Of a stretch of 64,000 bases of DNA, positions 3,901 through 61,988 are shown piece after piece. The position numbers and the translations under genes are program-made. Origin of the DNA: Octopus vulgaris (lineage: Eukaryota); NCBI GenBank assembly GCA_951406725.2, contig OX597838.1:13144001-13208000 (forward strand), in the 5' to 3' direction. Each line of letters opens with the position of its first letter. Position 1 is the stretch's first letter. A model generated the notes under the pieces. That model made no database searches. It had not been told where the DNA came from and was given only the letters and a program-made list of their open reading frames with translations.

Positions 3901-4321
3901 TATTTCATATTTACATATTACATGTGTAAATCTATATCTGTGTATGTGTGTGCATTTATATTTAGGTATGTGTATATATAGATTTTTATGTGTATATATT
4001 ATGTGTATGTGTATGCATTTATATTTAGGTGTGTGTATATGTATAGATTTTTTATGTGTATATATTAGGTGTATGTGTATATTTCTATATTACATGTGTA
4101 AATTTATAGTTGTGTATGTACATTTATATTTGTGTATATTTTTATGTGTATGTATATTTATGTATGTTCCCATGTATATATATATATATATATGTGTGTG
4201 TGTATGTATTTCTATGTTGGTCATATTTATTTACAAATTATCTACATCTCTGCCTCTATCCCAAAAGCTATTAATAACTTCACTGAAAAGTCTCACTAAA
4301 GTCCCTCTCCTCTTCCCTTAG

Positions 4322-28290: not shown

Positions 28291-28443
28291 CTCTTCTAAG
28301 ACATCATGTCATCGCCCATCTCCACTGTTACCACACTCCCCCATTGTGTCAGATGGAGCTCCGCATCCTCCTCTCGGCCCAGAGGAGGTTGTGCCACTGA
28401 GTTCTCGAACTATTGACACATATGCAGCGGCCATGTTCCAGAG
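28291..28443 (+). CDS. PXN: Probable paxillin-gene internal exon (SSKTSCHRPSPLLPHSPIVSDGAPHPPLGPEEVVPLSSRTIDTYAAAMFQR)
   Basis: ttttcttgtttccatccAG| … CAG AG|GTcaga; 153 nt, phase 2-2; Pro/Ser-rich; phase-compatible with the downstream exons leading to LD4. Confidence 0.6.
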
Positions 28444-29053
28444 GTCAGACATCTTAAATAAATTATATTGCATGATGGGTATTGTACTGGTCCTACTGTC
28501 AATTATTTCTATATTTATTTTATTCGTTTAGTTTCAGTAAATTTTTTATTATTTTGCTTGATAAATGTCATGAGGGTTTTGTTGCATATCATTGGCTGTT
28601 GTCACTTCCTGTTGTCACTCGCTGTTGTCACTTCTCATTTTCTGTTGTGAAATTCTTACATTTCTCTAGCTTTTACTTTCCTTTTGTTTCTGGTTTTCTT
28701 TTCCTCTTCAGTGCTTATGCGTTTAGTAATGTGTCAGTAACGTATTTAGATTACAAATAGGAAAACATACATTTCACATGTAGCTGATAATTTAACTGCT
28801 GCTCAACAGCTGTTTCAACAACAGCAGATATCATTATATAGTTACATAGTTATTCTATTTAAAATGAAGTTTACTGCATTATAGCAATGTATGGGAGTTT
28901 AACATGCTGAGCTCTTAATTTCCCCAGATATTCTTCAATTCTTTATATTTAGATTAATGTATCGATAATGTGACTGATTCATATGTGTCTGTTTGTCTGT
29001 CTGTCTGAGTATCTATTTATCTATCTATCTATATATCTATATATATATATCTA

Positions 29054-29106
<53 letters not shown>

Positions 29107-29291
29107 TATATAGGAAAAATTAGATAGATAGATAGATAGATTTTATATATATAGATAGACAGACAAACAGTTAGGAGATCCAGCCGTAGAAACACTATTT
29201 GACTGGGCACTGTGAAGCCTTGGCTTTAGATCCGTCCAACCCATGCTAGCATGGAAAACGGACGTAAACGATGATGATGATGATGATAATT

Positions 29292-29332
<41 letters not shown>

Positions 29333-30621
29333 TAGTAATGTATGTATCTATGTGATGTATATGTGTTCATATACTTTTTAAAGCTGGCAATGGGCTGGAA
29401 AATACTTGTGGCAGTATTCCATGACCAAATGCTCTTCCTGTTGCAAACCATTACTTGTTTTCAAATAAACCACTGTATATCACTGGTCTTTCCATGTTGA
29501 ACTGCTGAACAAATTCTTCATGCTGCACATAAACAAATGGCTGCACGTATGTATATATCATCAACAGCATTTAATGTCCATATTTAATGCTGGCATGGGT
29601 AAGATAGTTTAAGGGACTCTAAGCCAGAGGACTGCATCGTGCTCCAATATCTGCTTTGGCATGGTTTTCTACAGCTGGATGCCCTTCCTTACACCTACCA
29701 CTTCGCAGCCTCTACTGGGTGCTTTTTTTTCTCAGCACCAGCATTAGTGAGGTTACCGTGCATCTTTCAAATCTACGATCCCTTTCAACTAAGTTGGGCT
29801 ACCACCACAGGGTCAGGGGCCATCTTTATGCTAGATGTGAGATTAAAATATGACAGAAGAGGCCAGGCATGCATATTTTATCTGAATGTTTATTTCCATA
29901 ATAATAATAATAATAATAATAATAAAATTATAAGCGGCAGTTTGCACAGAAATCTTCTCTTTCTCAGCACTTTCCTTTTTCATTTCACTGTCTTGAGATT
30001 GGTAGTCGGTAGAGGTGAGGAAGGCATTTGATCTTTTTAAAATTTGATTTACTTTTTGACAATTTCAGATTTTTATGTTGTGGAGTTTCTTCATTTCTTG
30101 ACTCTCGTCCGTCTTTTCCCAAACAGTAGTGATTACTGTTATCGTCATTGACATCATCTTGAGCTACATCACTGTCATCATCATAATCATTAACATGAGT
30201 ATCATATCATCATTATCATCATGACCATGAACATCATCATCACTTCATTAAGTCATCATTTCATTAAGTCATCATTTCATCATCATCATTAACATGAGTA
30301 TCATATCATATTGTTATCATCATCATCGTCCTCAATATTATCATCACTACCATGTCCATGAGCATCATCATCATCATCATCATCATCCTTGATGTTCTTC
30401 AACATCATCTGAAATTTGACTTATTATTAAGCAAGAGAAATATCCAAGAGAATTACTTACTAAGTATACTTTGCAGGAAGGTAATTAAGTTTGGGTTCAA
30501 ATCCTTAGTTTCATCGCTCCACCCTAACAACAACTACAATCAGTCAGAAAAATAAAATAAGCTACCAGGGTACACTGAGGCCGATTTTTTTTTTTTTTTT
30601 TTTTCAACTATACATATCCTG

Positions 30622-30805
30622 TGTCGGTGGCACGTAAAAAGCACCCACTACACTCATGGAGTGGTTGGCGTTAGGAAGGGCATCCAGCCGTAGAAACATT
30701 GCCAGATCAGACTGGGCCTGGTGCAGCCTTCTGACTTCCCAGACCCCAGTTGAACTGTCCAACCCATGCTAGCATGGAAAGCGGATGCTAAACGATGATG
30801 ATGAT
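30622..30805 (+). mobile_element. Family C repeat
   Basis: gtcggtggcacgtaaaaagcacccactacac…aaacgatgatgatg. Confidence 0.8.
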
Positions 30806-31721
30806 ATCACTCCCCTTATCAGCTTGTATTTGGGTGTAGATGTTAAAAATGGATTGGTTAGTGTATGGGGGCTTGTAGATGTCAATGTCCGTAGAGTACC
30901 ATACAGCACAAAATACCTTGTGGTGTTTCATTGGGTGATTCACTTTCATAGTTCTATGCCCCACCTTTTCTTCAGTTTGTTGCTCTGCACTGACATTAGA
31001 AATAGCAGTCGTGTACATTCCTTTAGCTTCTGAGTTTGAAATCCAGCCAGGTAGTGTGTGGGTCGGGGAAGATCATCTTCTGGCAAAAACCTTCCAAGCA
31101 TGGGTCAATATAAGCACTTGTCCAAATACTGGGTACGGGTTTAATTAACTACACCCTTCTACTAAAACTTGTGACTAGCATCCACCACTTCCACAACCAC
31201 CAGTACCATCTTCATCATCATCATCATTAGTAAGAGCACACATCTTTTTTTTTTCATGCCACACCAAATCATCATCATCATCGTTTAACGTCTGCTTTCC
31301 ATGCTAGCATGGGTTGGACTAAATCATTGTCATAGCAGAATGTATTAATTAGACACCATACCATAATTAGGACAGATAGTATCAACTTTCTATGGTTATG
31401 ACAGACAATATTTTGTAGGGGATACACCACACTTTGGTTAGAACTGACAGTATTTTCTAGGGAACACGCCATACTTTGGTTAAGGACACAATGGTCACAA
31501 AATGCATTTTCTGTCATCCTGTGGACAAAAATATTTAAAAACTCACTCAAGTTTTTAAAAATATGGTATTGTTTTATTTATTTGTTCAGTTTTTTTTTGT
31601 TGGTATCTATGTGTGTATATGTGTGTGTGTGTGTGTGTAGATGTTTAGTGCTGGTGTAGGCTGTGTGTGTTTGTCAGTATAACTCATGATTATACTGTTT
31701 GCATATGTTGTGGCTTAGGTT

Positions 31722-31800
<79 letters not shown>

Positions 31801-32221
31801 GTGTGTGTTTAGTTATGTGTGTGTTCGTATAATGCCCAAATAAGTGTGTACATATCAGTTCACATATGTGTATTCAGAATTTATACATGTTAATGTATGG
31901 TTTGTTTGTTTGTGTGTGTGTATGTATGTATGTATGTATGTGTGTGTGTGTGTGTGTGAGTCTATGTATACACACATTCACACACATGAGTGTATGTGTG
32001 TTTATTTGTAAAACTTGTGCACTTTTGTGCGTGTATGCACATATGTAATGTCATTGTTTTTGTTTGTGCATATATATCAGTTTTTATAAATACTCCAACT
32101 CTCTATTTTGTATATGTGTGTGTATGTGTATGTGATAGGCATAAAAGATGTATATTTTGACAAAAAAAAAAGTTCCAATATCTTTTGACTGTTTTTTTTT
32201 TGTTTTTCTTTATATTATCAG

Positions 32222-32234
32222 AATTGATGGGGAG
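32222..32234 (+). CDS. PXN: Predicted 13-nt microexon (R-I-D-G-E), phase 2 in and phase 0 out; an alternative donor at 32269 would give a 48-nt phase 2-2 exon
   Basis: Long U-rich tract gtttttttttgtttttctttatattatcAG, then GAG|GTAACA; exactly bridges the phase-2 donor at 28443 to the phase-0 acceptors at 32423 and 47744. Confidence 0.45.
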
Positions 32235-32422
32235 GTAACAACGGTGACCTCTGACCTTATCCGCCTGAGGTTGTTTGACCCAAACTGCGACTGGTCTTAT
32301 AACAGTTTCATCTACGTCCCCCAAAAAAACACCAAAACAAAAAGCAAAACTAAACAAAAAAAATCCCTCCCTGTCATCTAAAATTCTTCTTTGCACCAAA
32401 TTCTTCTATTTTGTTGGTTTAG

Positions 32423-35400
32423 CCAGCGGTCATGTATTCTATGTCGCAAACCACTTTAGCCGAGCGAGAGGGCCGAGAGAATCAAACACACAGCCGCAAT
32501 AGCTCGGCGCCGTTTGTTCGGACACATACATTGACCTCTGGCAGGATGGCCAGTTTCTCAGAAAATGGAAAGTTTTCGCATTTAGAGCACCGGTTGAATA
32601 ACACTTCACAGACCTCAACCGGGGTCGAGAATGATCAGAGTTGCTGCACTGACAGAAAGAGGGGGACTAAGACAACTGTGAGACATTCCAATTTCCAGTC
32701 TGAACTGGATTCTGTACTTAAAGCTAGATCAACTCCGATCAAGAAAGCACCACAAATTCCGGCCCTTAGAGGTAACCCTAACAATCCGAACTCTTCTTCC
32801 ACTTTTGAAACCATTCCTAACTCATCTGCAGGTAGCATTAGTAGTGTAAATAGGAAACAGTCACCAGCCCATAGCCTTTCAGATCAACCCGTATCATTTA
32901 GAGTAGCAGCCGCACCTGTACAAACGCATGCTCCTCCTTCACCCCTACCTCCTCCGCTTGACCTTCCCCCACCGCCGAATCTCCCCCGCCTCTCAGGGCC
33001 CCACCCACCAACTCGTAGTGCTTCATTGAATGTCAAAACAGGTCAAATGTCAAATAATTTGAACAGCTCCCCATTTCGGCAGTCTGGCCGTGCGAGGTCT
33101 TCAACGAAAGGGAGCCACACGAGTAGCATCTTGAGGTCTGGCTTTTTGGATACGTCAGATCTGGAAGACTGTCGGACACCCGAGATCAGTGAACTGAATT
33201 TCTCTATAGGACACGGTACACCCGTTGCATCAGAAAGCGGATCAAGAAGCATCCAACAGCCTGCCCCCTCAGTGGATTCAAGCAGGTTTGCCTTGACTTC
33301 AAAACCAACAAGCAAAATCGATGAGCCCATCCCAGTGTATCTGAAATGCCAGACTTGGTGCAACAAAATACCTGATGCTGGAGGCAAAAAGGCACCCGTC
33401 CCTCAACCAAAAATGAGTGAAGAATTGCGAAACATTGAATCATTTGAGTCAGCAATGTTGGACTGGTTTCAGACTATTACACAGGCAAATGACACAGATG
33501 ACTTAAGATCAGAAACGTCAGTGAGTTCTGTTGGTTCGCGCAAGTCCGAATGTCGGCTCCGGTCAATCATATCCAACCGTTTCCAAACATCAGACCAAAT
33601 TGAGAATGTTCTCACTGATTTACTGGCTGTCTCTGATCAATATGCACAGCTGACTGATTCAGAGTCTATAGGCCCAGCAGCTTTGGATCCTCTGGAATCA
33701 AGATATCGAACTTTTGGTCGCAAGCCTGGTTCAGCTCCCCGGTCCCGAATGTTCCGAAGAACTTCTGGATATCGAAGCGGGGATATGTCTGAAACAGAGT
33801 CCGATTCGGAGAGACCTGCACATCCAAGTAGTTACAAGACCGTCTTATCCGAACTTCAGGCAGTTTTGAGGAAAAGAAAAGTCACACCGAAAACGCCGTC
33901 TGTGGAATCTGGTTTGGGTTCCTCTGAAAATTCTATGAAAGCTACCTCTGAGACCATGTCACCACCTATTTCCAGGCAGAGCAAAGCTTCAACCCCTCCT
34001 GCTCCACCTCCTAAACCTCAGATGGCAAAGGTACATGAAGCTAACCCAGATTCAGTCCAAACAGCCAGTAAAACCCAACGACGGCCATTAGTGAATCCAG
34101 GTGATTTTCAAGTTCTGCTGGGTGAATTAAGCACAGCATGGTCTAAGCGTCTCAGAAGAATACGGAAAGCTCAGGTAGTCTCACAGAGAGGAGGGGAAAG
34201 TTCACTGTATGCCAACTTCCAAGGGTTCCGTGTCCCTGAAACTCTGGCCAGCGATTCATCATCAAAATATAAGAACTTTGAAGGTGTTCGGACTCCAGCT
34301 GAATCAATAGCTGAAGAAGATGCTGAAGATCTAAAAAATTATGAGAGTTTCGAAGCAAGAAAATCTAAATTTATGGCTAACAGCTCATCACGTCAATACG
34401 AAAGTGATCAAGAATATACAAGACCTTCGTTTGGCAGAATTCGGGGTCCTGGCATGAATAATGACATGGTGCGGCCCTCGAGGGTGTCTGTCAGAAAGCA
34501 AGCATTCCAGTCTCCAAATGAAAACCAGTCAAGGAGGAAACCTGATCTGGAGACGTGTTCACTCCAATCTTTTAGTGTCCGGCCTATTTCCAAAATGCAG
34601 AACAATTTTGGAAGTGCTGTTGTCAGTGATAATGAATTTGATGATCGAAATGAGGGTTTTCGGAGGCATCGGTCACGGCATAACCCTGAACAACGTCGTA
34701 TATGGCAAAACATTGAGTATATTCAGGTTAATTCACGACAGACTCCTTCAAGACATGGTTCTGAGCAAAGTCTTCCACAGCTAATGGCAGAATCACAGGG
34801 TCGGCCACGACGGCGTGAACGTACTCCCCAAATTGTTGAAAACCAGTCTTCCCAGCAGCCTCTTCAACATTCTCAGTCAAGAGATGATGTCAGTTGCTCT
34901 TCCCTTCACCTTTCTAGGGATGTTTCATCCAAACCAAAAGTGGATGAACAGATCCCCTCTCCAGAAGATAGCAAGGAACAACCAAAGCATGAATCTTCTA
35001 CAGTATTAACATTGTCCAATAGCAACCAAGGTCCAAAAGTGAAAGCAGTCAGTCAAAAGACAGACACTAAATCTGAATTTCATAAAAGAATTGAGCAAAT
35101 TTCAGCTGATGATTCCAATAGATCTGCTGACCCAGAAGCAAGGAAATTCTTGGTAGCTGGTATAACAGATGTATCAAAGCAGCTACAGTCTGCAATTTCT
35201 GAAGCAACAGAGAAACCAGCACCATTAAGTATGAAGTTATCTTCACCAGTTAATCAGAACATTGGACCTACCAAGGCACCAAACACTGATCATATGAATG
35301 TTGGGGAGGAAAAGGAGATTATTTTAGAAAGGCTACAGAAAATTGGAGATGCTAAATTTGTCAGCAAAGAAGAACTCCCAGATTTGCCAATGGATATTGT

Positions 35401-38400
35401 TAAAGCCAGTGCTATGATAGTAAAACCGTTAGTTACATCCAATCTGAAAAAATTAATTGGTGGTGGAAAGGAAGAAGAGAAACCAAAAAGCTTGGGAAAG
35501 TCTGAAGTAGTTCTTAATTTCTCTGAGACAGCTGTGCAAGAGCAGACAGTTCTGTCAGAATACGAAGACAATGTCATTTTGGGTGGCATTGAAGACAAAT
35601 TGGTTCCAGAAAAGAAACCAGATACTTCTGATGGATTTGATATGGATAACAGCAGAATCTTGTCTGAAATGAATGTTGACCAAAAGTTATCCCTGGAAGA
35701 ACCTAGTGAAAACGAGTCTGTTATCAGTAAGGCCAAAGTTGAAATTACATCTACAAAAACTACAGCCGTCACGGTGCTTCAGAGTTCAGTCTCTGAAGAA
35801 ACCAAAGCAAGTGATACTGTATTAAAGAGTGAAGGTATTACTGAAGATCAACAAGCAACAGATGGTTTGGTGGAAGATGCTGAAGATCAAGTGACTTCAT
35901 CAAATATCTCCATCAGTTTAGACCATCCTGTCATAGGAATGGAAAATGTTGAAGAAAGTGACCAAGAAACAAAACACAAATCTGAGACCGTTCTCTTCCT
36001 TCCTTATACAAAAGAACCACAACAGAACGAAGTCAGTGAACCTCAACCTGTCACTGTAGACAGTTTGAAGTCATCAACTGTTGTCTTGTCTTCAATAAAC
36101 ACAGAACATTCCTTACCTTCTGAAAATCTCCTCATTGATTCCTTAACATACGAGAACAGTAAAGAACAAACTGAGAACTTAGAGGTAACACCTGAAGAAG
36201 CGAGTAGTATAGAAGTTGTACCAATGTCACAAGACCTGCCAGTGTTACAAGATGTGCCAGTGATACAAGATGCCAAGGTTTCTTCAGCACAAATTGAATT
36301 AGGCCAATCAGAAGAAAACATTGAAGAAATAACTAATGTGTCTGTGACATTATCTCTGGGTGAAAATTCTGATTTAAAGAAGCCAGAAGAGTCAGTGCTT
36401 AAACCAGAAGAATCACTGGTTATACCAGAAGAATCACTGGTTAAACCAGAAGAATTACTGGTTAAACCAGAAGAATCACTGGTTAAGCCAGAAGAATCAC
36501 TGGTTAAACCAGAAGAGTCACTGACTAAGCCGGAAGAGTCACTGGTTAAACCAGAAGAATTACTGGTTAAACCAGAAGAATCACTGGTTATACCTGAAGA
36601 ATCACTGGTTAAACCAGAAGAGTCACTGACTAAGCCGGAAGAATCACTAGTTATACCAGAAGAGTCACTGACTAAGCCTGAAGAGTCACTGGTTAAACCA
36701 TATGAAAAAGATGAAGAAAAGGAATCTTTGGATGTGGAACAAATTTCTTGTGAGCAAGAAGACCATCAGATTGAACATGACCAACTTGTTGAAGAGAAGG
36801 GTTTGAAGAAGAGTGAGGCAGAAGGAAGCAAACAAGAAACATCTGATATCTCTGAGATAATGGATACGTTTGATGACTTGCAGAAGGAATTGAGATTAAT
36901 GGAATCTTCTTTGGAAGAAAACTCTGCAAAAGGTCCAACGATAGAGAGTATGCTTCAGGAGGCATTGGTAAAGACGTATTCAATTGATGTTCTGTCACAG
37001 TTGAATCAATCTGATGAGGATAGCTTTGAACCAGGGATAATCTGTGGTCAGTGGATTAAGAAGGGGACAACAGTTAGATCTGAAAGTTCAGTGGTGAAAG
37101 AGGAATTCAAGCATGAAACTCAAGTCATAGATTTTGGGGAAGAATTGGTAAATGCTGGAGACCTGGCAGATTCTGTTTCAGAGCAATTAGACAGTGGTGA
37201 AGGTGAGTTGAAAACTGAAAATCTTGGTTTTGTAGAGCACGAGGAATTTGATTATGTTCAGAAGATCCCTAGTGATTTCATAGAAGATGAAATCTATGAC
37301 AATGTTCCAAGTGTAACAGAGGGTTCCATCCCATTTGTATCTGCTGAATCAAAATCACCTGATGCATTGCTAATGAAGGAGGAAGAAGAACATACAGAAA
37401 AACTGACAGAAAAAATGATTCCCAGTAACATAATGTCTATGGAGACAGTAACATCTTCGAGAACATCATTTGTCTTGGAGGAAACATCTGTTCCAGCTGT
37501 ATTAGAGTTTGAGGCATCCATTTCAGGGCCAACCAATTTGGAAACCTCCGCTCAGGCAACAGCAGGACTTGAACCAACGTATACCTTGACACCATTAGAG
37601 CAAGACAGTTGTATTGTGGAACCAGCTCCAATGGTAACTCATAGAGGGATGGAGCCACCTACAGAGGTGTCAACAAGGCTGGAGTCATACATAGAGTCAT
37701 CAGCAGACCTGGAGTCGCATATACAAACATCAATAGACCTGGAGTCATGTACAGAAACATCAGTAGAATTTGATTCACCTTCAGTAGAATTACCAGAAAA
37801 ACAGCAAGCACCCATCGATGCATCTGCAGAGCTGGAGAGGCTTAGAATGGCACTGGCACAGATGGAGCCATCAAGTGTGATACCTCCACAGATGGAGCCA
37901 TCGTCTGAGGCACAATCACAACTGGAGGCTCTTAGAATGGCACTGGCACAAATGGAACCATCAAGCGCCACACCTCCACAACTGGAGTCCCCAAGCGCAA
38001 TGCCTCCACAACTGGAGCCGTCGTCTGAGGCACAATCACAACTGGAGGCTCTAAGAATGGCACTGGCACAAATGGAGCCAGTAAATGCAACGCCTCAGCA
38101 ACCAGAGCCATCAAACGTCACGCTTCCACAGTTGGTGCCATCAGCCACGGCACAGTCACAACTGGAGAAACTTAGTATGGCACTGTCACAAATGGAATCA
38201 TCACCTGCAGCTCTCCCACGGCTGGAGCCATCGGCTGTGGCACAGTCACAGTTGGATAAACTTAGTTTGGCACTGTCACAAATGGGGTCATCATCAGTGG
38301 CGTCTTCACAGCTGGAGCCAAGAACAGTGGCATTATCTGAATTGGAATCGTCCATTGAGGCTGTACCAACGGAGTTGCAGCTGTGTACCATGCAGGTAAC

Positions 38401-41400
38401 AGAGGTGGAGTCGTCTACCACAGGAACAGTGGGCGTGTTCACTTTAAAAGAGCAACAGGAGATTCCTGAAATGGAAAAATCTCTTCCATTAACGGATGAG
38501 GTTGTTACTGAAGCTGCACTTTTGGTTGATGCCTCAAACAGTGAACCGCTTGAGATTCCTGTTGAAATCCATGCTGAGGTGTCTGTTGCTGATGAGCAGT
38601 TAGTACCAGATTTGGAACTGACCGAGACACAACCCGTCTCAGCAACTCCCCTTCATAAACTGCCCCAGGAATCCACTGACAATGATCCCTTGTGCAGCTC
38701 TGAAGTAACAGTAACAAATCAAGCTGTTCTGGATGAACGTCTGACCCCTTGTTATCCTGAAACACGTGATGTGCAGAATGTTGCAGAACAGTTGGTGCCA
38801 GAAGTGGCAACGCATCAGGCAGAGAAGTTTCCATTGTTTACAATAGAAACTGCACAGCCATCATATGAACCCGCAGACTTTGTGGCACCCTCTGAAATAT
38901 TAATAGGTGAAGCCGAGTCTGAGACACAGGAAGTGTCAAAGGCACTTGAGGAGCCTGAAATATCTAACTTGGCAGCAAATGCACAGGAAGGGGTTGCAAA
39001 TGATTTTAGCTTTGAGACTAAACATGTAACAGATGAAAGTAATTATTTAGAAAGAATTGATATAATCAGTCGAGATCTTCACAATTTAATGCCAGTTACC
39101 AAAGTTGACATTGCTGAAGAATTAACTGGCAATCTCTCTGATAGTTCTGATGAGATATTTCAAGACACACTTTGCGACAATTCTCCTATGTTTCGCCGAA
39201 AATACACGGAAATTGTTCGTGCAGAAATTGGAACCAGAATGGAAACACTTCACACTTATCAGAGAGACTTATTGTTGGAAATTGAGGAAGATGATGATGA
39301 TGAAGAATTCGTTGAAGCTGAAGGAGAGGCTATGTGCTGGGAGTCTCTGAAAGAGTCTTGGAATATCCAGGGAACTTTGGAAACTCAAACAACTGTAGAG
39401 AAGTGTGATGATGATGATGATCGATCTCTTCCGACCATTTATGAAGCAACTGAAGACCGAACGGAAGCTGTTGTTAGCAAGACTGTTGATGTCTTTGAGG
39501 GATTGGAATCAGCTGCTAATCAGTGTGTTGAGAACCTTGAGAAAACCTCCAAAGAATTGGCTCTGGCAGAAGCTGATGAAATATCCATCTATTATGGGGC
39601 TGAAGTGACCGATTCTGCTGAGTGTAAGGAAGAACACGATGTCCTTGACAATGCTGTCATGGTAGACGATGATAAAGAACTTGTTGAAGCACTTCCTAGT
39701 TGTGAAGAACACGATGTCCTTGACAATGCTGTCGTGGTAGAAGATGATAAAGAACTTGTTGAAGCACTTCCTAGCTGTGAAGAACACGATGTCCTTGACA
39801 ATGCTGTCGTGGTAGAAGATGATAAAGAACTTGTTGAAGCACTTCCTAGCTGTGAAGAAATAGAAGATGAATCAAAGACGGTTCAGCTAAATGAAATGAA
39901 ACGATCTGAAGCAATTACTGACTTTGGTAAAATATCTGAGAAAGAAACAGTCACAGTGAAAGAGTTTGAAGAATTTTCTGGTGAGCTATCATCTGAAACT
40001 CCTCTCATGAAATCTGATGAGAGTTTTGGAAATCTAGTGCAATACTTGGAGTCAGATAGCATCAATGATCTTGAGGAATTTGAGCGTATTGAATTGGCAT
40101 GTGAGGAACTTTCTAAGAACAAGCTTGTAGATCTCCAAGACATGTCAAACAAAGATGAATGTGTTGAGAAGACTGAAAAGCCTCACAAAGCTAATGGTTT
40201 AGAGGAATCTTCAGACTCAGACATTATGAAGAGCCAGCAGATAATTTTAACCAAGGAATTAGAAGTAGATGAGGGTGATGAATCTGCTGATTTAATGGTT
40301 GATGCCAGTGATGCAATTAACAGAGTGAAGACCAAAGTCAGTGAACAAAGATCTGTGTCTCTTCTCCAGAATAGCGAGGAAGTTGAAGTGGAAGATCAGA
40401 TTGATTATTATGAGTATATGAGATTAAGGAGCTGTGAAGAAGAACAAGTTCATGCTGCTCTCCACAGTGAGGGTGGATTATCTGAAAATGGTGAGATTAA
40501 TAACAAGGATGGAAAGGTGGAACATGGAAGAAAAGTTGCTCAGAAAATATCTGTTGTTACTTCTGATCAACATGTAGAAATAGCTGCATCTACTGTAGCG
40601 GGTGATGCATCGTTTGCAGATTATTGCAGTGAAGATGTCTCTGAGAATATTACCAGAAGTGTTTGTGTTGACAATGTTGATGTGGTGAAGGACGTCACAA
40701 TGGAGTCTTATTCCAAAGATAGTGAAAATGGTGAGGTACTGAAAATCGATGCCTTGAACTCCACCAATCTTTCTATTAATGCTAATGAGATATCTATCAC
40801 TACAACTACAGAAGCAAATTCTATTGAAGAATCCATCAGAGCAGAAAATGGCTTGTCTGAAAAGACAGGTTTTGTTACATCAGAAGAAAATTCCACAGAG
40901 ATGGAACTGCTGGAAATCTCTGCCAAACAAGAAACATCTTTGTTGGATGACAGCAGCAATTTAAGTGGTGAAACTGTGAAAGATAACCAATGTGATATGG
41001 TGGTTGACATCAGTGTCATTAACAGTGAAGTTAAAGAAGAACAGAAGGTCCCATGTCCAGTTGATTTGTCTGGTGTTGAAACACAAACCCTGGTGATCAA
41101 TGAAAATATGGTTTTGGAATTGCCAGAAATTGATGCTGACTTGAATGTCAGTTCTGAACAGTCTTCACCAGAAAGCAGTTCTTCCGTTTCAATTTCCCAA
41201 ACTGCTGACAAAGAATTCCAACAAGACCAGCTTGAAGATTTGAAAGACAACACTTCAGAATTGTCTCAAATCCAAGAGAATAGTGAGACAACAGCCGTTG
41301 CCACCACAAAGAAGAAAAGGAGGAGGAAGGCGAAGAAAAACAAAAACAACAAAGATAAACCTGAAACTCTTCTCATGGAAGACCAGGAAGTTTTGGAAAA

Positions 41401-44293
41401 TGGTGATGCCATAGAGCAGGATGAAATGACTGAGGAATATTCTGGAGAGTGTCTCTTGATTGAGGACTCTGTTGAAGAGTTGTCTGTACAGAAGGTTTGT
41501 TATTCCCAGTCTAGTACAGAAGTTCATTCCACAGTTGCTACAGCTGGGGCTGAATTTACTGAATCATTGACTTTAGAAAGTGATGAGTCAGTGGAGCATT
41601 CTAGACATTCACCAGTTGAGGTCTCTGCAACTTTTTCACTGTCTGATATTGTGAAAGACATTTCAAAGAATGAAGAGGAAATAACAGAAGAAAATACTTC
41701 AAGAGAACAACATCAAGCGAATCAGGATAAGGTAACTGAAACAACTTTAGAACAAATAGCCAATCAGAATGATACAGAAAATCATGAACAAACGGTAGAA
41801 ACAATTTCACAGCAGCAAACTCAAATTACCAGTCATGATACGATAACAGAAGTAACTCTACTGCAACAATCCGGTCAGGATGAGACATCACAACAGCTAA
41901 CCATTCAGGATGAAACATCACAACAGCTAACCATTCAAGATGAGACATCACAACAGCTAACCATTCAGGATGGGACATCACAACAGCTAACCATTCAGGA
42001 TGAAACATCACAACAGCTAACCATTCAGGATGAGACATCACAACAGCTAACCATTCAGGATGAGACATCACAACAGCTAACCATTCAGGATGGGACATCA
42101 CAACAGCTAACCATTCAGGATGGGACATCACAACAGCTAACCATTCAGGATGAAACATCACAACAGCTAACCATTCAGGATGAAACATCACAACAGCTAA
42201 CCATTCAGGATGAAACATCACAACAGCTAACCATTCAGGATGAAGCATCACAACAGCTAACCATTCAGGATGAAACATCACAACAGCTAACCATTCAGGA
42301 TGAAACATCACAACAGCTAACCATTCAGGATGAAGCATCACAACAGCTAACCAATCAGGATGAGGTAACAGAAATGGTTACACAAAAACTAGTCAGTCAC
42401 ACAGTAACAGAAACAATTTCACAAGAACTGACCAATCATGAGTTAACAATCTCAGAGCAATTAGCCAGCCATAATGAAGTGACAGAAACCGATTCACAAC
42501 AATTACGGCAGCTAACGAATCATGATGAAACAATGCAAACAGTTTCCTTAGACTCTACGGCTGTTTCAAGAGATGAAGGCATTTCTCAGACAGAGTCATC
42601 TAGTTCTGTCGTTGAAGGGAAGAAGCAGAAAACTGTGACTTTTGGTACAACTGAAACTGTTCAAAACATTGATAATCGTTCTCTTCATAAAGGCTATGAA
42701 GAAGCAACAGAGTATGATTCAAATTCCTTGCTAGATACATCCCACTGTTTCACAATATATTTCCGTGAAAATTCTGGAGATATACCAAAGTCAAAACTTC
42801 CTTCATTGTCTGCAAGTCGAGGACAAAACTCTTTGCAACCACTTGCAGAAGAATCATCTAAACAAATTCAAAACAGAATTGACATTAATAACAAATTAAA
42901 TTCACGTTTTCCTTCCAAGATTCCTCGTCCTTTCAGTAAAACCAATACTTCTTTGACACAGTCATCATCTTCCAGCTTTTCTGATTCTTACATGAAAAAA
43001 TCAAATTTCCTCTCTGATTTACCAGATTCTTCAATTGATGATTATTTCCCTCGTAGAGAGGAATCCAAAGTGAACAGTACTGATGTAATTAAACCAGAAA
43101 TGCCACCACCATCATCACATTTTACCATTTCAAATCAAATGGAATCCAGTGAGGGCCCTCCACCTGTTCCACTACCTTTTAGGATGCTTTATGATGAGAG
43201 TGAGCCACCACCGATACCATCGAGGGAACTCAGAAGTTTGGAAACTGAACCGGAAAATCTTCCAACCAATTCTATTGACACCACAGTGCCACCTGGTGGC
43301 CAAGATGGTGTCACTTTGGTCAGAGAGGAACAGCAGCAAGATAACACTGCCAACAATTCTGGTAACTCAGACAACGGTGTTCAGTCTTCAAATAAATCTG
43401 CAATCTACCAGCAGAAACGGTTTAGGGACTTAAAGCATTTCTCAAGGATCAGTAATTTGACCTACAATGAAGTCTTAGAACTCGAAGAGCATGAGAAAGT
43501 AGAATATCTGAAAGATTCTAGCACTGAGCAGCGCATGCAGGATTTACGGGATTTCAGCCAATTGTGTTCAACAGAATCTGTTTTCTCCCGAAAATCTGGC
43601 AGTTCTGATTCAGGAATTCAGACCAATTTACGAGAGTCCAAGCATTCCAGCTCCTCATTATCACTCCAGACTTCGAGGACGTCAGGTTCAGGTTATCGTA
43701 AAACCAAAAGGCTCTCAGACTCTGCTGTCTGTGTTGATGGAACTGAAGAATTTGATCAGTCAATGTCCACATCCATCCGTCAAACTAACGGAGAGACTGA
43801 AAGGTCCAACACATTGCAGTCTGTGGGCAGACAAAGTCGAGAACCTATTGTTTACGGAAGGATCAACAAATCTAGAGAAATGGCCCGTAGCTGTTACAGC
43901 CTTGATTACCAATTCAGATATGGTTCAAAAGGATCTTCAGATTTGGCCACCACTGCAGACAGGTCTTCTTATCATGGAAGCAGCCGAAATGATTCTGAAA
44001 CTAACTTAACAGTTCAAAGGTTACAGGATGCTGGCATGTGCACGTCAAATTTTACACCCGTCAAAAAGAACTTTGACGACAGTCAGTCATTTATGTCCAC
44101 GGTGTCATTCCTTAAGTCTAACGAAGACTCAAATCTATCAGTAAATGATACTGAGACCGAATCTATTTATGAGGACGTTTCTCTCTACTCAAGTTCAGAA
44201 TGTGACACGGCGTCAATAAAACGCGAGAAAAAATCCAAAAAGTTGAGTTCAAGGTTAAAGAAATTTGGTAGCAAATTGAAGTTTTGGAAATAA
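32423..44293 (+). CDS. Giant uninterrupted coding exon (3953 aa from Met 32432): acidic, largely low-complexity, repeat-rich protein; giant alternative terminal exon of the paxillin locus or nested intronless gene
   Basis: 11.9 kb stop-free and free of the microsatellites and SINEs that saturate the flanks; tandem repeats all have periods divisible by 3; acceptor ttcttctattttgttggttTAG at 32422 (that TAG is also the in-frame upstream stop); TAA at 44291-44293. Confidence 0.9.
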   Translation, partial: PAVMYSMSQTTLAEREGRENQTHSRNSSAPFVRTHTLTSGRMASFSENGKFSHLEHRLNNTSQTSTGVENDQSCCTDRKRGTKTTVRHSNFQSELDSVLKARSTPIKKAPQIPALRGNPNNPNSSSTFETIPNSSAGSISSVNRKQSPAHSLSDQPVSFRVAAAPVQTHAPPSPLPPPLDLPPPPNLPRLSGPHPPTRSASLNVKTGQMSNNLNSSPFRQSGRARSSTKGSHTSSILRSGFLDTSDLEDCRTPEISELNFSIGHGTPVASESGSRSIQQPAPSVDSSRFALTSKPTSKIDEPIPVYLKCQTWCNKIPDAGGKKAPVPQPKMSEELRNIESFESAMLDWFQTITQANDTDDLRSETSVSSVGSRKSECRLRSIISNRFQTSDQIENVLTDLLAVSDQYAQLTDSESIGPAALDPLESRYRTFGRKPGSAPRSRMFRRTSGYRSGDMSETESDSERPAHPSSYKTVLSELQAVLRKRKVTPKTPSVESGLGSSENSMKATSETMSPPISRQSKASTPPAPPPKPQMAKVHEANPDSVQTASKTQRRPLVNPGDFQVLLGELSTAWSKRLRRIRKAQVVSQRGGESSLYANFQGFRVPETLASDSSSKYKNFEGVRTPAESIAEEDAEDLKNYESFEARKSKFMANSSSRQYESDQEYTRPSFGRIRGPGMNNDMVRPSRVSVRKQAFQSPNENQSRRKPDLETCSLQSFSVRPISKMQNNFGSAVVSDNEFDDRNEGFRRHRSRHNPEQRRIWQNIEYIQVNSRQTPSRHGSEQSLPQLMAESQGRPRRRERTPQIVENQSSQQPLQHSQSRDDVSCSSLHLSRDVSSKPKVDEQIPSPEDSKEQPKHESSTVLTLSNSNQGPKVKAVSQKTDTKSEFHKRIEQISADDSNRSADPEARKFLVAGITDVSKQLQSAISEATEKPAPLSMKLSSPVNQNIGPTKAPNTDHMNVGEEKEIILERLQKIGDAKFVSKEELPDLPMDIVKASAMIVKPLVTSNLKKLIGGGKEEEKPKSLGKSEVVLNFSETAVQEQTVLSEYEDNVILGGIEDKLVPEKKPDTSDGFDMDNSRILSEMNVDQKLSLEEPSENESVISKAKVEITSTKTTAVTVLQSSVSEETKASDTVLKSEGITEDQQATDGLVEDAEDQVTSSNISISLDHPVIGMENVEESDQETKHKSETVLFLPYTKEPQQNEVSEPQPVTVDSLKSSTVVLSSINTEHSLPSENLLIDSLTYENSKEQTENLEVTPEEASSIEVVPMSQDLPVLQDVPVIQDAKVSSAQIELGQSEENIEEITNVSVTLSLGENSDLKKPEESVLKPEESLVIPEESLVKPEELLVKPEESLVKPEESLVKPEESLTKPEESLVKPEELLVKPEESLVIPEESLVKPEESLTKPEESLVIPEESLTKPEESLVKPYEKDEEKESLDVEQISCEQEDHQIEHDQLVEEKGLKKSEAEGSKQETSDISEIMDTFDDLQKELRLMESSLEENSAKGPTIESMLQEALVKTYSIDVLSQLNQSDEDSFEPGIICGQWIKKGTTVRSESSVVKEEFKHETQVIDFGEELVNAGDLADSVSEQLDSGEGELKTENLGFVEHEEFDYVQKIPSDFIEDEIYDNVPSVTEGSIPFVSAESKSPDALLMKEEEEHTEKLTEKMIPSNIMSMETVTSSRTSFVLEETSVPAVLEFEASISGPTNLETSAQATAGLEPTYTLTPLEQDSCIVEPAPMVTHRGMEPPTEVSTRLESYIESSADLESHIQTSIDLESCTETSVEFDSPSVELPEKQQAPIDASAELERLRMALAQMEPSSVIPPQMEPSSEAQSQLEALRMALAQMEPSSATPPQLESPSAMPPQLEPSSEAQSQLEALRMALAQMEPVNATPQQPEPSNVTLPQLVPSATAQSQLEKLSMALSQMESSPAALPRLEPSAVAQSQLDKLSLALSQMGSSSVASSQLEPRTVALSELESSIEAVPTELQLCTMQVTEVESSTTGTVGVFTLKEQQEIPEMEKSLPLTDEVVTEAALLVDASNSEPLEIPVEIHAEVSVADEQLVPDLELTETQPVSATPLHKLPQESTDNDPLCSSEVTVTNQAVLDERLTPCYPETRDVQNVAEQLVPEVATHQAEKFPLFTIETAQPSYEPADFVAPSEILIGEAESETQEVSKALEEPEISNLAANAQEGVANDFSFETKHVTDESNYLERIDIISRDLHNLMPVTKVDIAEELTGNLSDSSDEIFQDTLCDNSPMFRRKYTEIVRAEIGTRMETLHTYQRDLLLEIEEDDDDEEFVEAEGEAMCWESLKESWNIQGTLETQTTVEKCDDDDDRSLPTIYEATEDRTEAVVSKTVDVFEGLESAANQCVENLEKTSKELALAEADEISIYYGAEVTDSAECKEEHDVLDNAVMVDDDKELVEALPSCEEHDVLDNAVVVEDDKELVEALPSCEEHDVLDNAVVVEDDKELVEALPSCEEIEDESKTVQLNEMKRSEAITDFGKISEKETVTVKEFEEFSGELSSETPLMKSDESFGNLVQYLESDSINDLEEFERIELACEELSKNKLVDLQDMSNKDECVEKTEKPHKANGLEESSDSDIMKSQQIILTKELEVDEGDESADLMVDASDAINRVKTKVSEQRSVSLLQNSEEVEVEDQIDYYEYMRLRSCEEEQVHAALHSEGGLSENGEINNKDGKVEHGRKVAQKISVVTSDQHVEIAASTVAGDASFADYCSEDVSENITRSVCVDNVDVVKDVTMESYSKDSENGEVLKIDALNSTNLSINANEISITTTTEANSIEESIRAENGLSEKTGFVTSEENSTEMELLEISAKQETSLLDDSSNLSGETVKDNQCDMVVDISVINSEVKEEQKVPCPVDLSGVETQTLVINENMVLELPEIDADLNVSSEQSSPESSSSVSISQTADKEFQQDQLEDLKDNTSELSQIQENSETTAVATTKKKRRRKAKKNKNNKDKPETLLMEDQEVLENGDAIEQDEMTEEYSGECLLIEDSVEELSVQKVCYSQSSTEVHSTVATAGAEFTESLTLESDESVEHSRHSPVEVSATFSLSDIVKDISKNEEEITEENTSREQHQANQDKVTETTLEQIANQNDTENHEQTVETISQQQTQITSHDTITEVTLLQQSGQDETSQQLTIQDETSQQLTIQDETSQQLTIQDGTSQQLTIQDETSQQLTIQDETSQQLTIQDETSQQLTIQDGTSQQLTIQDGTSQQLTIQDETSQQLTIQDETSQQLTIQDETSQQLTIQDEASQQLTIQDETSQQLTIQDETSQQLTIQDEASQQLTNQDEVTEMVTQKLVSHTVTETISQELTNHELTISEQLASHNEVTETDSQQLRQLTNHDETMQTVSLDSTAVSRDEGISQTESSSSVVEGKKQKTVTFGTTETVQNIDNRSLHKGYEEATEYDSNSLLDTSHCFTIYFRENSGDIPKSKLPSLSASRGQNSLQPLAEESSKQIQNRIDINNKLNSRFPSKIPRPFSKTNTSLTQSSSSSFSDSYMKKSNFLSDLPDSSIDDYFPRREESKVNSTDVIKPEMPPPSSHFTISNQMESSEGPPPVPLPFRMLYDESEPPPIPSRELRSLETEPENLPTNSIDTTVPPGGQDGVTLVREEQQQDNTANNSGNSDNGVQSSNKSAIYQQKRFRDLKHFSRISNLTYNEVLELEEHEKVEYLKDSSTEQRMQDLRDFSQLCSTESVFSRKSGSSDSGIQTNLRESKHSSSSLSLQTSRTSGSGYRKTKRLSDSAVCVDGTEEFDQSMSTSIRQTNGETERSNTLQSVGRQSREPIVYGRINKSREMARSCYSLDYQFRYGSKGSSDLATTADRSSYHGSSRNDSETNLTVQRLQDAGMCTSNFTPVKKNFDDSQSFMSTVSFLKSNEDSNLSVNDTETESIYEDVSLYSSSECDTASIKREKKSKKLSSRLKKFGSKLKFWK
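36383..36700 (+). repeat. Coding tandem repeat, 21-bp / 7-aa unit PEESL(V/T)(K/I), ~15 copies
   Basis: ccagaagaatcactggttaaa repeated. Confidence 0.95.
37823..38350 (+). repeat. Coding repeat built from 30-bp subunits, with five (S)QLE(A/K/R)L(R/S)MAL(A/S)QME-type helices at ~90/120/120/90-bp spacing
   Basis: Seen in DNA (cacaatcacaactggaggctcttagaatggcactggcacaaatggag) and in translation. Confidence 0.9.
39627..39858 (+). repeat. Coding tandem repeat, 75-bp / 25-aa unit CEEHDVLDNAVVVEDDKELVEALPS, 3 copies
   Basis: Near-identical copies. Confidence 0.95.
41876..42365 (+). repeat. Coding tandem repeat, 30-bp / 10-aa unit QD(E/G)(T/A)SQQLTI, ~16 copies
   Basis: caggatgaaacatcacaacagctaaccatt repeated almost perfectly. 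Confidence 0.95.
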
Positions 44294-44837
44294 TTGATGA
44301 AGCAGGACGAAGAAACATAAATCTGAAGAAGGAAAGCACAAAACAAAGAAAAAACAAAACAAAACAAACAAACAAAGAAAATATTGTACAAAATTATAAT
44401 ATAAAAATGATAATTCTTTTAATGAATTAAAAACACTGGTTTACCATGGAGCTGAGTTCTAAACCGATAAGGAAAAGAAATTGGGGTGAAAAAAGAAAAA
44501 TTCTTGATTCATTGTAGCTTTTACATATACTTACCATTTTTTAACATGAATCATATGTGAAGGTTTCTTTTTTGGGGTTTTTTGATGAAAATGTTGCTTC
44601 TGTGGCAGAAAATATTTGGGCAATCTTCATAGTTGATTTTTGATATAGATAATGTTTAATTTTAAAATTCACCATTTCCAACTCCTGTTTAAAAGCAACA
44701 ACAACAACAACAGCAACTGCAACAAGTAACTGCTACATTTGTTTGTATATTGAGCTTCTGAAGTTGTCATTAAAACTCCATCAATGGAAAAAATATTTTT
44801 TAAAAAAATACACAAAAAAAAAAACATGATGCAATGA

Positions 44838-45202
44838 AATAAACAGAAAGAAATGAGGCTTACATAAACTGTTTGATTAACTCTTGCACACTTGTCATCC
44901 CTTCCCCCCCCCCACACACACACACGCACACCCTACAGCCATCCATCCAAACTTTTTTTTCCCCCCATACCTCTATCTACCAACTTTATATGCTATGACA
45001 CACCCTTGTATAGGCCTGTTGTGCTGTGAATTTATTCCAAGTATTTCGGTTTAAAGCTAAATAAAGGGGCTGTTTGAATTGAAGCATGTGTAAATTTAAT
45101 CTTTACACACACACACACACACCACACGTGAAAACGAAAAAAAAAAAAGGAAACTACCTTGGCACCTTTGATATGAAATATACATACATGAATACATGTG
45201 TA

Positions 45203-45244
<42 letters not shown>

Positions 45245-45280
45245 CATACATACACGTGTGTGTGTATTTGTGTCAATAAA
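44838..45280 (+). terminator. Candidate polyadenylation signals downstream of the giant ORF
   Basis: AATAAA at 44838-44843, 45060-45065 and 45275-45280; AT-rich context makes these weak evidence. Confidence 0.3.
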
Positions 45281-45517
45281 TATCTGTAGAATCAAGTCTG
45301 TTGGAAGGAAAAGATAAGAGGGATGATGACTGAGTTATCCCTTCACTGATGAACAGTTACCGCATGTATGGGTTGGGTAGATTGCTAGCTGTCTTCCTGT
45401 GTGGGGTGGATGGGTGATTGTATAAAGATGAATTACTGTTTTGCATGTGTACGTGTATATGCTGGCTGTCTTGAGTAAATTCCTTCTTACTTAGTTGACA
45501 GGCCCTAAAAATTACAG

Positions 45518-45550
<33 letters not shown>

Positions 45551-45810
45551 GTAATAATAATAATAAACCAGTTTGTGTTCAGGAAATTGTTGGCTGAAAA
45601 GAAAACCCATATCTGAATTGGGATCAATAATAACAATGGTAAAAGAAAAAGTATATGAAATAAAAAGATTTAAGCCCAAAAGAAATTAAACCCCTCCCTC
45701 TCTAGGATATCAACCAGCTATGCTACAAGATTTCTGGCTTGGCTTTTAGATCAGTTATAAACTGTAGGTATCTTCCTTTTACACCCCTGTCTTAGCCTCA
45801 GGTCATACTA

Positions 45811-45870
<60 letters not shown>

Positions 45871-46135
45871 ACTTACTCTCTCTCTCTCTTTATCTATCTA
45901 TCTCTCTAGCTAGCTATCTATCTATATCTTGATTGATCGATCTTATCTCTCTATCTTTCTGTCTGTTTACGTTTGTTAACTGTAATGAAAGGGGGGAAAA
46001 AAAAAGAACTCAATACTGGATATTGAGGATAGATAATTTAATTCAGTCAACTGGGAACTAAGACTGGCTGAAACTCTTGAGTATCGTCAAATGTTGGCAT
46101 GTTTGAACCATATTTGAACCACAGGTCGACCAGAA

Positions 46136-46325
46136 TGGTCAGCTAGTTCGTTATGGCATGGTTGAGTCAGTTAGTCTGCTAAATGTTATGGCGAGGTCAC
46201 CCAGTTAACTGGACATTATGTTGTGTCTGGCTAGTTCGAGGCGGTCACCTAGTTGACTGAACATTATAGAGAGGTCACCTAGTTCACTGAACATTATTGA
46301 GAGGTCAGCTAGTTCACTAAACATC
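46136..46325 (+). repeat. Degenerate 30-bp minisatellite whose unit contains AGGTCA-nnn-AGTTCA (DR3)
   Basis: gaggtcacctagttcactgaacattattga; perfect DR3 at 46272-46286 and 46302-46316, degenerate copies at ~46136, 46194 and 46242. Confidence 0.75.
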
Positions 46326-46839
46326 TTAGTTTAGCTGGCTGTTCATTACTGAATATTACAATATGTCTGGCTGATTTGCAAGAATGTTTGGTCTGGTCAA
46401 CCAGTTCCCTGAACTCACTGGGCAATGTTGTATAGCCAGTGGCTTCATTGAACACCTTAACAATGTCCATATATATATATGCTGAACCCTGTACAGCTAT
46501 TTTGAGACTTATCCTGAGTACTCTTGTGATGTGTCCACTGGATCTTGTGAGACGGGTTGTACAGCACTGCTCAACATTATGTTCTGTCCAGCATGTTCAC
46601 CAGATTTTGTGGGCCATTCAGTGGTGTTCACCATAAGAACAGAAGGAGAAGGACACACAGACACAACACCAATGAATATTAGAGAAGCAAGCCTTTACTG
46701 CATGATCTTATCTTTTATATATAATATATCTTATTTTAAAGTTATGTCCTAGGTAGAAGAGGGGGTTCAATAGGAAGGTTTGCCCATAACAGTAATATTA
46801 TTAGCAGTAGTAGCAGCAGCAGCAGTAGTAGTTGTTGTT

Positions 46840-46875
<36 letters not shown>

Positions 46876-47570
46876 AAATACAATTTAAATAAAAACAAAC
46901 GTAAAATTTTAGAAATGGTTAATCTTTATTATTCTCATCATCATCATCATCGTCGTCATCATCATTGTCATCATTGTCCACTGATTCACCACCACTGCCG
47001 CTATCATATCCCTCGCTCATACTGACAAACAACTTGCTGCATATTTCTGCTGCAGTCTTTATCTACCTTCCTTGATTCTGGGGGGTTTTTTGGGGTTTTT
47101 TTTTAAACCCCAATTTATTAGTGGGATGGAGTTGTGAGATAGAAAGAGAGCAAAGGAAAAGAAAGAAAGAAAGAAAGAAAGGAAGGAAGGAAGGAAGGAA
47201 AGAAAGAAAGAGGGGGTAATGGAGGATACTACTTTCTCTCCTTACTTTAATTGAATCTATTTTAGATTTTAGTAACGGAACAGTGAGTGGGGGGGGGAGA
47301 GTGCGCAAGGAGCTCAGAGGATTTAGGATCTGATCTGGAACCTCTCCCCCACATTGAAGGGGGCTTACTCTTGTAAAGCAGGGCACCCTATAGAATTCTT
47401 ATTCTGCTGTGTGTGTGCAAGGGGGTGGGGGGGGGGGCAGCGGAGAAGAGTGTGGGGTGGGGGTTAGATTGTTGTGCCTGAATTGGTCCTAAGATGTTAG
47501 AAGTTGTTGTCGGTTTCTATTTATACACCATACGTCTATGGAAACGGTTATTAGATAGGGTGGCAGGAAT

Positions 47571-47604
<34 letters not shown>

Positions 47605-47743
47605 AAAGAAAGTAAAAAAAGGAAAACAAGAACAGATTTAAAACCAAAAAATACAAAATTACAAGTGGAATAAAATAAAGCGAAACAGGGAAAATCAAAA
47701 ACACCACCCGACTGCGATATTTCTTTTCTTTGCCAACCCTCAG

Positions 47744-47811
47744 AACAACAGCAGCAGTCTTGAGTGTGATGATGGTGGTGGCGGCGGTGGTGGTGGTGGT
47801 GGAGACTTGGG
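47744..47811 (+). CDS. PXN: Probable paxillin-gene exon ([23 protein letters not shown]), phase 0 in and phase 2 out
   Basis: atttcttttctttgccaaccctcAG| … TGGG|GTAAGC, strong sites at both ends; 68 nt; 13 + 68 = 81 nt restores frame between 28443 and 57387. Confidence 0.55.
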
Positions 47812-47903
47812 GTAAGCAAAAGAGGCGGGGCAGCGCTGAAAAATCGCATCCATTTATTTATCATTTCAACAATCATAATTTCATGTTTTGCAAACAGTGT
47901 GTG

Positions 47904-47947
<44 letters not shown>

Positions 47948-47979
47948 TGTATGTGTATATATATATATATACATAAATA

Positions 47980-48011
<32 letters not shown>

Positions 48012-57386: not shown

Positions 57387-58313
57387 GCCTCCTCCACCAC
57401 TACCACCATCTTCACTTCCTCTTTCTCAACCTTTCCCCGGGTTTCCCCACATGGAATCTGCAGTGACGAAGCAAAGCATGCAGTCCTCCACTTCGGACGG
57501 CAACTACAGTAGTTTCCAGTCATCGGAGACGGTCAAATCATCTTCGGTGTCAACCCATAGCACATCAGCAGATGACGCTTGCAGTACGACTGCATTCACG
57601 GGCGGCCTCGTTGACGTCCCATCTGCCTTTGTGCCTGTCCATCCTCTCGGACCAGCTCCAGTGATTTCCGAGCAAATGGAATCAAAGAGTTCCCAGAGTT
57701 ATTCGAAGCTGGAGAGCACCGACTCGAAATCTGAAGTGATGCAGAAGAGTGAACAGTCGACGATGGAGCGGTCAGAGAAATATGCCATGTCTTCATCGAC
57801 ATTGCAACAACAACAACAACACCAACTGCCGCAGCTTCAACAGCCCCCCTTGATGATGATGATGATGAGTAACAAAATGCAGAGTGAGGGTCAGGGCCAG
57901 GGCCAGGGCCACGGCCTGCCTGTTGCGGACATGAGCGCTCCGCCGTTCCCTGTCCAGCAGAGCTACGAGACAAAGTCCGAGCAGAGTCACATCTACAAGA
58001 AGATTGAGCACAGTGACGTGTCCCAGGGTTTTCCCTGCCCACCGCCACCGCCCCTAGCTCCTTCAGCGCAGCCGATCCCGCTGCAGATCGGCACTGGTCA
58101 AGCGGACAGTTATTATCAGCAGCAGCAGTATCAGCAGCAGCAGCAGGACTCCAGCCCTGGTTACCAGGTGTTGTCTCCTTTCCAGAGCTCGCAACACTAC
58201 GAGTCTAGTGTCTCCGAACAACAACAACAACACCAACAGCAGCAACAACAAGAGGTTGTCACCTCTTCCATGCAGCAACACTCCTCTACATCTGCTTCGG
58301 ACAATTTCCAGAG
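57387..58313 (+). CDS. PXN: Large paxillin-gene internal exon (309 codons; Pro/Ser/Gln-rich, PPPPLPPSS…SDNFQR)
   Basis: ccttcctttttttgtcAG| … CAG AG|GTTAGA; 927 nt, phase 2-2; GC-richer than flanks; splices in frame to the LD4 exon. Confidence 0.75.
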
Positions 58314-58455
58314 GTTAGATTCCATCCCAGTGCATGACTGAGTGAAGTGCCTTAATCTGAAACTGCATTCTTAACAAATCAACATGTATATACATATATA
58401 TATATATATATACATATATATATACATGTATATATATATATACATATATATATAC

Positions 58456-61792: not shown

Positions 61793-61988
61793 CCGACAGA
61801 TGGCAGGGGTCAACTCAGCCGCTACAACTGTGGGTCAGCACGCACAGATCGGGGGCCAGGTCTATGGCCAAAATGCCACGTATATACAGCAGCCTCTCTA
61901 CCAGGAAACACCAATGATGTCCCCGCAAACAGCTTCTACCGCCACTCGAGAGCTGGATGAGTTAATGGCTTCACTCTCAGAGTTTAGG
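61793..61988 (+). CDS. PXN: Paxillin exon containing the LD4 motif (RQMAGVNS…TASTATRELDELMASLSEFR)
   Basis: tctcttctctcctacAG| … AGG|GTAAGT; phase 2 in and phase 0 out; ATRELDELMASLSEF is nearly identical to vertebrate paxillin LD4 (SATRELDELMASLSDFK); the exon ends at the position where vertebrate beta/gamma inserts begin. Confidence 0.9.

Follow-up and report, generated by a model that had tools for sequence, protein, structure and literature searches.

A candidate 13-nt adaptor exon may lead octopus paxillin into a giant terminal reading frame

In vertebrate ankyrin-B/G, the giant exons are internal, keep the reading frame and leave the C-terminal domains in place; neural microexons are mostly multiples of 3 in length, and a 2019 eMIC study reportedly includes octopus. 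For paxillin itself, a mammalian extended form (ePxn) has been described in passages of PMC11216089, in which a large predicted disordered region is added by alternative splicing; ePxn runs to about 116 kDa, its insert is internal and comprises four exons, the splicing is driven by Rbfox1, and the protein is still found in focal adhesions. For neural microexons of the SRRM3/4 or eMIC type, excerpts of PMC12626424 give a length class of 3-27 nt, and passages of PMC8797185 describe eMIC exons as marked by UGC close to the 3' site, a long stretch free of AG, UCUC-rich tracts and CUAAY. Here, we describe a locus of Octopus vulgaris that resembles each of these systems in part and lies in a window of 64,000 nt (the whole stretch analysed; contig OX597838.1, positions 13,144,001 to 13,208,000), with all features given below on its + strand. 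As parts of the literature outline for ankyrin-B/G, a single very long exon would make an adaptor protein giant and largely disordered, and unlike the ankyrin exons the octopus exon would be terminal. The octopus form would also, like ePxn as presented in those passages (PMC11216089), enlarge paxillin by a large disordered region; unlike in ePxn, the frame is of ~3,956 codons, carries a terminal stop, requires a phase shift and would leave the protein without LD4, LD5 or any LIM domain, and no homology is claimed. The literature searched, with subscription papers mostly outside its scope, has yielded no description of this locus and nothing on a paxillin with a giant exon, and the passages of a study on O. 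bimaculoides exons (bioRxiv 10.64898/2026.09.05.749416) that were available make no mention of paxillin.

The window covers the linker between LD3 and LD4 of Octopus paxillin, a gene that starts 45.7 kb or more ahead of the window and reaches 26 kb beyond it. This anatomy has been taken from six public octopus paxillin models, all of them automatic predictions rather than measured junctions, three from O. sinensis (X2, X4, X6; X1, X3 and X5 are absent) and three from O. bimaculoides; four of the six were mapped on 264 kb of the gene's own genome, and two (P0009 and P0010) on the window only. Model P0012, whose exons map across the window and beyond, matches PF03535 (N-terminal LD motifs, Pfam) above cut-off, and its four C-terminal LIM stretches are encoded 18-26 kb past the window end. 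The LD3-LD4 linker is made up of four cassette exons, all of phase 2/2, of which two precede the window; the others are exon C (28291..28443), present in four of the six models (P0010-P0013), and the 927-nt exon D (57387..58313), present in all three O. bimaculoides models and in none of the three from O. sinensis. LD4 follows in an exon at 61793..61988 that all six models contain. Exon C ends in phase 2, the phase of all four upstream linker donors. The last 8 bases before GT are identical in exons C and D and their donors, GTCAGA and GTTAGA, are nearly so (28434-28449; 58304-58319), and the two exons are possibly related by duplication. Read beyond its donor, exon D meets a stop 9 codons on (57387-58341), and the LD4 acceptor has a second AG at +7 (61800), directly before an ATG.

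Inside a paxillin intron, and on the same strand, lies a giant S/E-rich open reading frame of 3,956 codons (32423..44293, stop at 44291-44293), which is single copy, begins right after the TAG of its acceptor and has Met at codons 4, 7, 42 and 209. The frame has been found open in three octopus genomes (incl. O. sinensis and O. bimaculoides), its protein is 98.3% identical to that of O. sinensis (3,780/3,847 aligned residues) and 90.6% to that of O. bimaculoides (3,210/3,543), and the periods of all 11 tandem-repeat rows inside it are divisible by 3; judged on these grounds, it is a real coding frame. In-frame arrays at 36383-36700, 39629-39859 and 41875-42363 (21, 75 and 30 nt) vary in copy number between species. 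When the first 700 aa have been compared with 1.84 billion representatives, two matches were returned, one being the O. bimaculoides protein and the other P0014, an unnamed ENA protein and distant homologue that is 50% identical over 212 columns and shares a conserved block at residues of about 400-608 (33620..34246). The odd tail of P0014 corresponds to this conserved stretch read in a shifted frame, with 19 of 22 positions compatible, against a mean of 4.1 and a maximum of 11 at 3,915 other positions.

The giant frame matches no Pfam family above cut-off and no LIM domain; a mobile-element origin is rejected, given the missing family match and the single copy. In the conserved block, WH2 or a related Pfam family has not been found, with nothing above E 0.18 across seven pieces; the best E of a PDB sequence search is 6.6 and the ESM Atlas matches are all under 0.9. 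For the giant protein, the Pfam, PDB and ESM Atlas comparisons yield leads only and assign it to no family. The conserved N-terminal part (32690-34180) carries several short helices that are amphipathic and trailed by basic residues, one of them LD-like at residue 393; we take these helices to resemble actin-binding helices of the VASP/WH2 type, a likeness for which Pfam gives no confirmation. The C-terminal tail (44222-44293) is strongly basic and nearly identical in both other octopuses, and could bind membranes. Use of the frame as an internal cassette has been rejected, as the three consensus-like donors that a tight pattern finds inside it are all of phase 1, not 2. An AATAAA cluster in AT-rich DNA (44838..45664, at 44838, 45060, 45275, 45562 and 45659) is a putative 3' end after the giant frame.

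Paxillin and this frame do not fit together directly: the linker donors are of phase 2, the giant acceptor is of phase 0, and a splice from 28443 to 32423 would reach a stop 12 codons later. The initial annotation had pointed to a 13-nt segment (32222..32234) between a U-rich acceptor ending in TCAG and a GAG/GTAACA donor as a converter of phase 2 to 0, and its coordinates and phases all hold; this candidate exon encodes IDGE, and the giant frame is open through it. The further forms proposed are likewise present as patterns, namely a 48-nt form of phase 2/2 (32222..32269) that would use a second donor at 32269, and a combination of the 13 nt with a 68-nt segment (47744..47811) into 27 open codons that return to phase 2 and read into 57387. 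What is confirmed here is a DNA pattern, not splicing; that 32222, 32423 and 47744 are spliced is what we infer. The U-rich 3' splice region (32172..32221) is AG-free for 49 nt and holds no TGC, and retention of the candidate 188-nt intron (32235..32422) would stop the phase-2 frame at 32379-32381. The 13-nt peptide is absent from all 14 proteins compared, incl. the six paxillin models, and two metagenome scans for the corresponding DNA of relatives have confirmed 0/258 and 0/260 pattern matches. Three other readings of the region have been discarded. A recursive-splice point at 32222 would need a GT after the acceptor, which is absent; an assembly slip in one continuous frame from 32222 into the giant one is ruled out by an in-frame TAG, which is the giant acceptor itself, and by the phase-2 stop at 32379; and for direct phase-2 entry, none of the 19 phase-2 YAG sites in the first 1.5 kb of the giant frame is a good acceptor, since only 4-12 of 17 positions are pyrimidines where true acceptors have a median of 14.

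The strength of the 32222 site has been assessed with a splice model trained on this gene's own 13 acceptors and 13 donors, a small model, against a background of 119,780 intronic bases with 6,162 AGs, 7,866 GTs and 10,363 AG..GT pairs of 3-27 nt. Acceptor 32222 has scored 11.7, compared with -0.7 to 11.0 for the true sites (leave-one-out), and stands at the top of the 6,162 intronic AGs; the 13-nt pair ranks 1 of 10,363 under this gene-trained model and is weaker under other models. The donor is ordinary (score 2.5, reached by 281 of the 7,866 GTs). Over 15 simple scores, the rank of 32222 among 3,057 YAG sites extends from 1 to 435, with 1-61 for the nine scores with windows of -25 to -40 and 23-435 for the six with shorter windows. 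Across the minus strand of these 264 kb, five window lengths have given 15, 7, 1, 0 and 1 equal-or-better sites, which scales to at most ~0.2 sites per 3.8-kb intron, or 0.07 with the right phase, for a site that was picked after the fact; the rough chance of such a frame-converting site per 3.8-kb intron, by arithmetic on this background, is about 0.005-0.07. The fit of the frame alone is cheap, because the same intron contains 33 loosely defined phase 2-to-0 segments. The giant acceptor at 32423 is moderate, with 196 of 6,162 AGs scoring as well, and has a 78-nt AG-free zone. Taken together, the splice-site scores and the chance estimates make it likely that a real exon at 32222 is spliced to 32423, its upstream partner being either one of the paxillin exons or a first exon without coding sequence. 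A second AG follows the giant acceptor at +4 (32427), out of frame, and a 21-nt microexon-like pair at 28712-28732, 270 nt after exon C in the same intron, ranks third.

The reading that we prefer, at a probability of roughly 45%, is that the giant frame serves as an alternative last exon of paxillin and is entered through the 13-nt adaptor exon. The splice would join acceptor 32222 to one of the phase-2 linker donors, either 28443 or any of the three that lie farther upstream; the 188-nt intron would be removed, and the transcript would end after 44293. The predicted product of about 4,416-4,449 aa (455 or 488 paxillin residues + 5 + 3,956) would contain LD1-LD3 and neither LD4, LD5 nor LIM1-4. 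The real choice would thus be made between acceptor 32222, for the giant form, and acceptors 57387/61793, for the LIM-containing forms; the 68-nt segment would not be required. For this reading speaks the position of the 13-mer, 188 nt upstream of the giant acceptor and top-ranked as a pair; against it count the average donor, the model-dependent rank of the acceptor, and the two Mets within the first seven codons of the giant frame, which fit a start of its own.

Control of the 13-mer by the neural SRRM/eMIC machinery, which had been suggested, is unsupported because no UGC precedes the exon (no TGC in the 150 nt upstream of 32222), and the adaptor reading does not indicate it. As in the neural microexons of passages in PMC8797185 and PMC12626424, the length falls within the 3-27 nt class, and a long AG exclusion zone (49 nt) and a long pyrimidine tract (22 T in -30..-4) are present. 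Unlike the eMIC exons outlined in PMC8797185, however, the octopus 13-mer has, besides no UGC near its 3' splice site, no UCUC-rich tract upstream, where one TCTC occurs at -122, and no CUAAY branch point nearby, where TTGAC is found at -65 and -37. Since two tested marks fail, we do not class the 13-mer as an eMIC microexon; at 13 nt it would also shift the frame, unlike most neural microexons. The Rbfox motif GCAUG shows no clear enrichment beside it, being absent from the 188-nt intron and occurring 8 times in the 3,778 nt upstream, where a rate of 1.19 per kb would predict about 4.5.

The main rival, tentative as well and somewhat less probable than the adaptor reading, holds that the giant frame is a distinct gene that lies within paxillin on the same strand, is driven by a promoter of its own and is translated from the Met at codon 4 or codon 7. 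On this view the 13-mer would either be an exon of the 5' UTR or have arisen by chance, and its frame would fit by a 1-in-3 coincidence. In the RefSeq annotation of O. sinensis, the frame indeed forms a locus of its own (LOC115224205, isoforms X1-X7), apart from the isoform series listed for paxillin, and all six sequences seen of it begin at the codon-4 Met; the initial annotation had named a giant frame with its own start as a refutation of its proposal. The isoforms of O. sinensis differ only by gaps in tandem repeats, confined to the 21-nt and 30-nt arrays and probably alignment artefacts, and because of this the RefSeq models say little on the 5' end; 13-nt exons, moreover, are often missed by short-read gene models. 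The O. bimaculoides counterpart, XP_014777632.1, called 'titin-like', starts at Met209. It and LOC115224205 represent the same frame as the one described here, but they are annotated as stand-alone uncharacterised proteins, not as paxillin. The O. bimaculoides model lacks the first 208 codons (32423-33046), which may reflect a frameshift, a gap or a real break; a real break would count against fusion.

Protein searches are in line with a nested gene insofar as no paxillin-giant fusion is found among the proteins searched: none among proteins of 2,175-6,923 aa (2 matches in 1,892 candidates scored), none with exon C among proteins of 91-2,000 aa (2 matches in 8 candidates), and none with exon D (1 match in 7,953 candidates). 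A CpG observed/expected ratio of 0.70 at 32000-32499, compared with 0.07-0.46 in the ten preceding 500-nt bins, would suit a promoter, but paxillin exons share this range (0.2-0.89), and CpG cannot separate a promoter from an exon. The 13-mer itself carries an ATG that is out of frame, and the frame opened by it overlaps the codon-4 ATG of the giant frame, which is awkward for a 5' UTR.

Beyond adaptor entry into the giant frame, the initial annotation had proposed a regulated two-way switch, in which the 13-nt donor chooses either 32423, for the giant form, or 47744, for a 68-nt exon that returns to phase 2 and yields the LIM form. The first half is plausible given the strong and well-placed acceptor at 32222. 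The claim of a switch between giant and canonical isoforms is not supported, as all six public models skip the whole 13-nt/68-nt region in frame. Exon C is joined to the LD4 exon by an in-frame splice from 28443 to 61793 in three of them (O. sinensis X2, X4, X6) and to exon D in one (O. bimaculoides), and C is skipped and D used in two; the splice from 28443 to 57387, which had been overlooked, is directly in frame. Canonical paxillin therefore does not need the 13-nt plus 68-nt path, which would at most give an extra minor isoform, and the two-way switch as a whole appears unlikely. In its favour stand the 27 open codons and the fact that 47744-47811 is the sole phase 0-to-2 open segment among 26 intronic G/GTAAG donors, eight of which have a fair acceptor upstream. 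The 68-nt candidate, a Gly-repeat segment of phase 0 to 2, makes a weak case: it is of low complexity with GGT/GAT microsatellite content, ranks 73 of 255 exon-like pairs, and its peptide occurs in 0/6 paxillin models. A CpG ratio of 0.80 at 47500-47999 and the purine-rich upstream DNA would also agree with an internal first exon that ends here, and the segment may be such an end. Equally doubtful is the farthest-reaching version, in which a frame-shifting 13-nt microexon would be the obligatory gate to a cephalopod-type paxillin of 4,400 aa with a giant disordered tail in place of LD4, LD5 and all LIM domains, while its single donor could instead be spliced to the 68-nt exon, a second phase-0 acceptor at a distance of 15.5 kb, and so regain the LIM frame; the present annotation as two genes would then be wrong. 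Without the 68-nt arm, the gate is about as probable as the preferred reading.

Least probable of all is that acceptor 32222 is real but serves another exon, either the 48-nt phase 2/2 cassette or a short last exon running over 52 codons to the 32379 stop: the acceptor is strong, the remaining linker exons are all of phase 2/2 and the 52-codon frame is open, yet donor 32269 is the weakest by consensus (3 of 7 positions match, where the 13 true donors reach 4-6; its score of 0.39 compares with a range of -0.1 to 5.5), and the peptide of 52 codons is missing from every model and has no Pfam match. If the 188-nt intron were retained, the 32222 exon translated in phase 2 (32223-32381) would give such a short, LIM-less end.

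Should the adaptor splice be false, the locus would contain a conserved single-exon gene of 12 kb nested on the same strand in paxillin. LIM domains target paxillin to adhesions, and if the adaptor splice is true, the giant form would keep three LD motifs, lose the LIM domains and go far beyond the 116-kDa mammalian ePxn. The octopus gene now listed as 'uncharacterised' or 'titin-like' would then be the tail of a paxillin of roughly 4,400 aa, and the 13-mer would offer a clear case of a non-triplet microexon that acts as a frame gate and has been missed by gene annotation.
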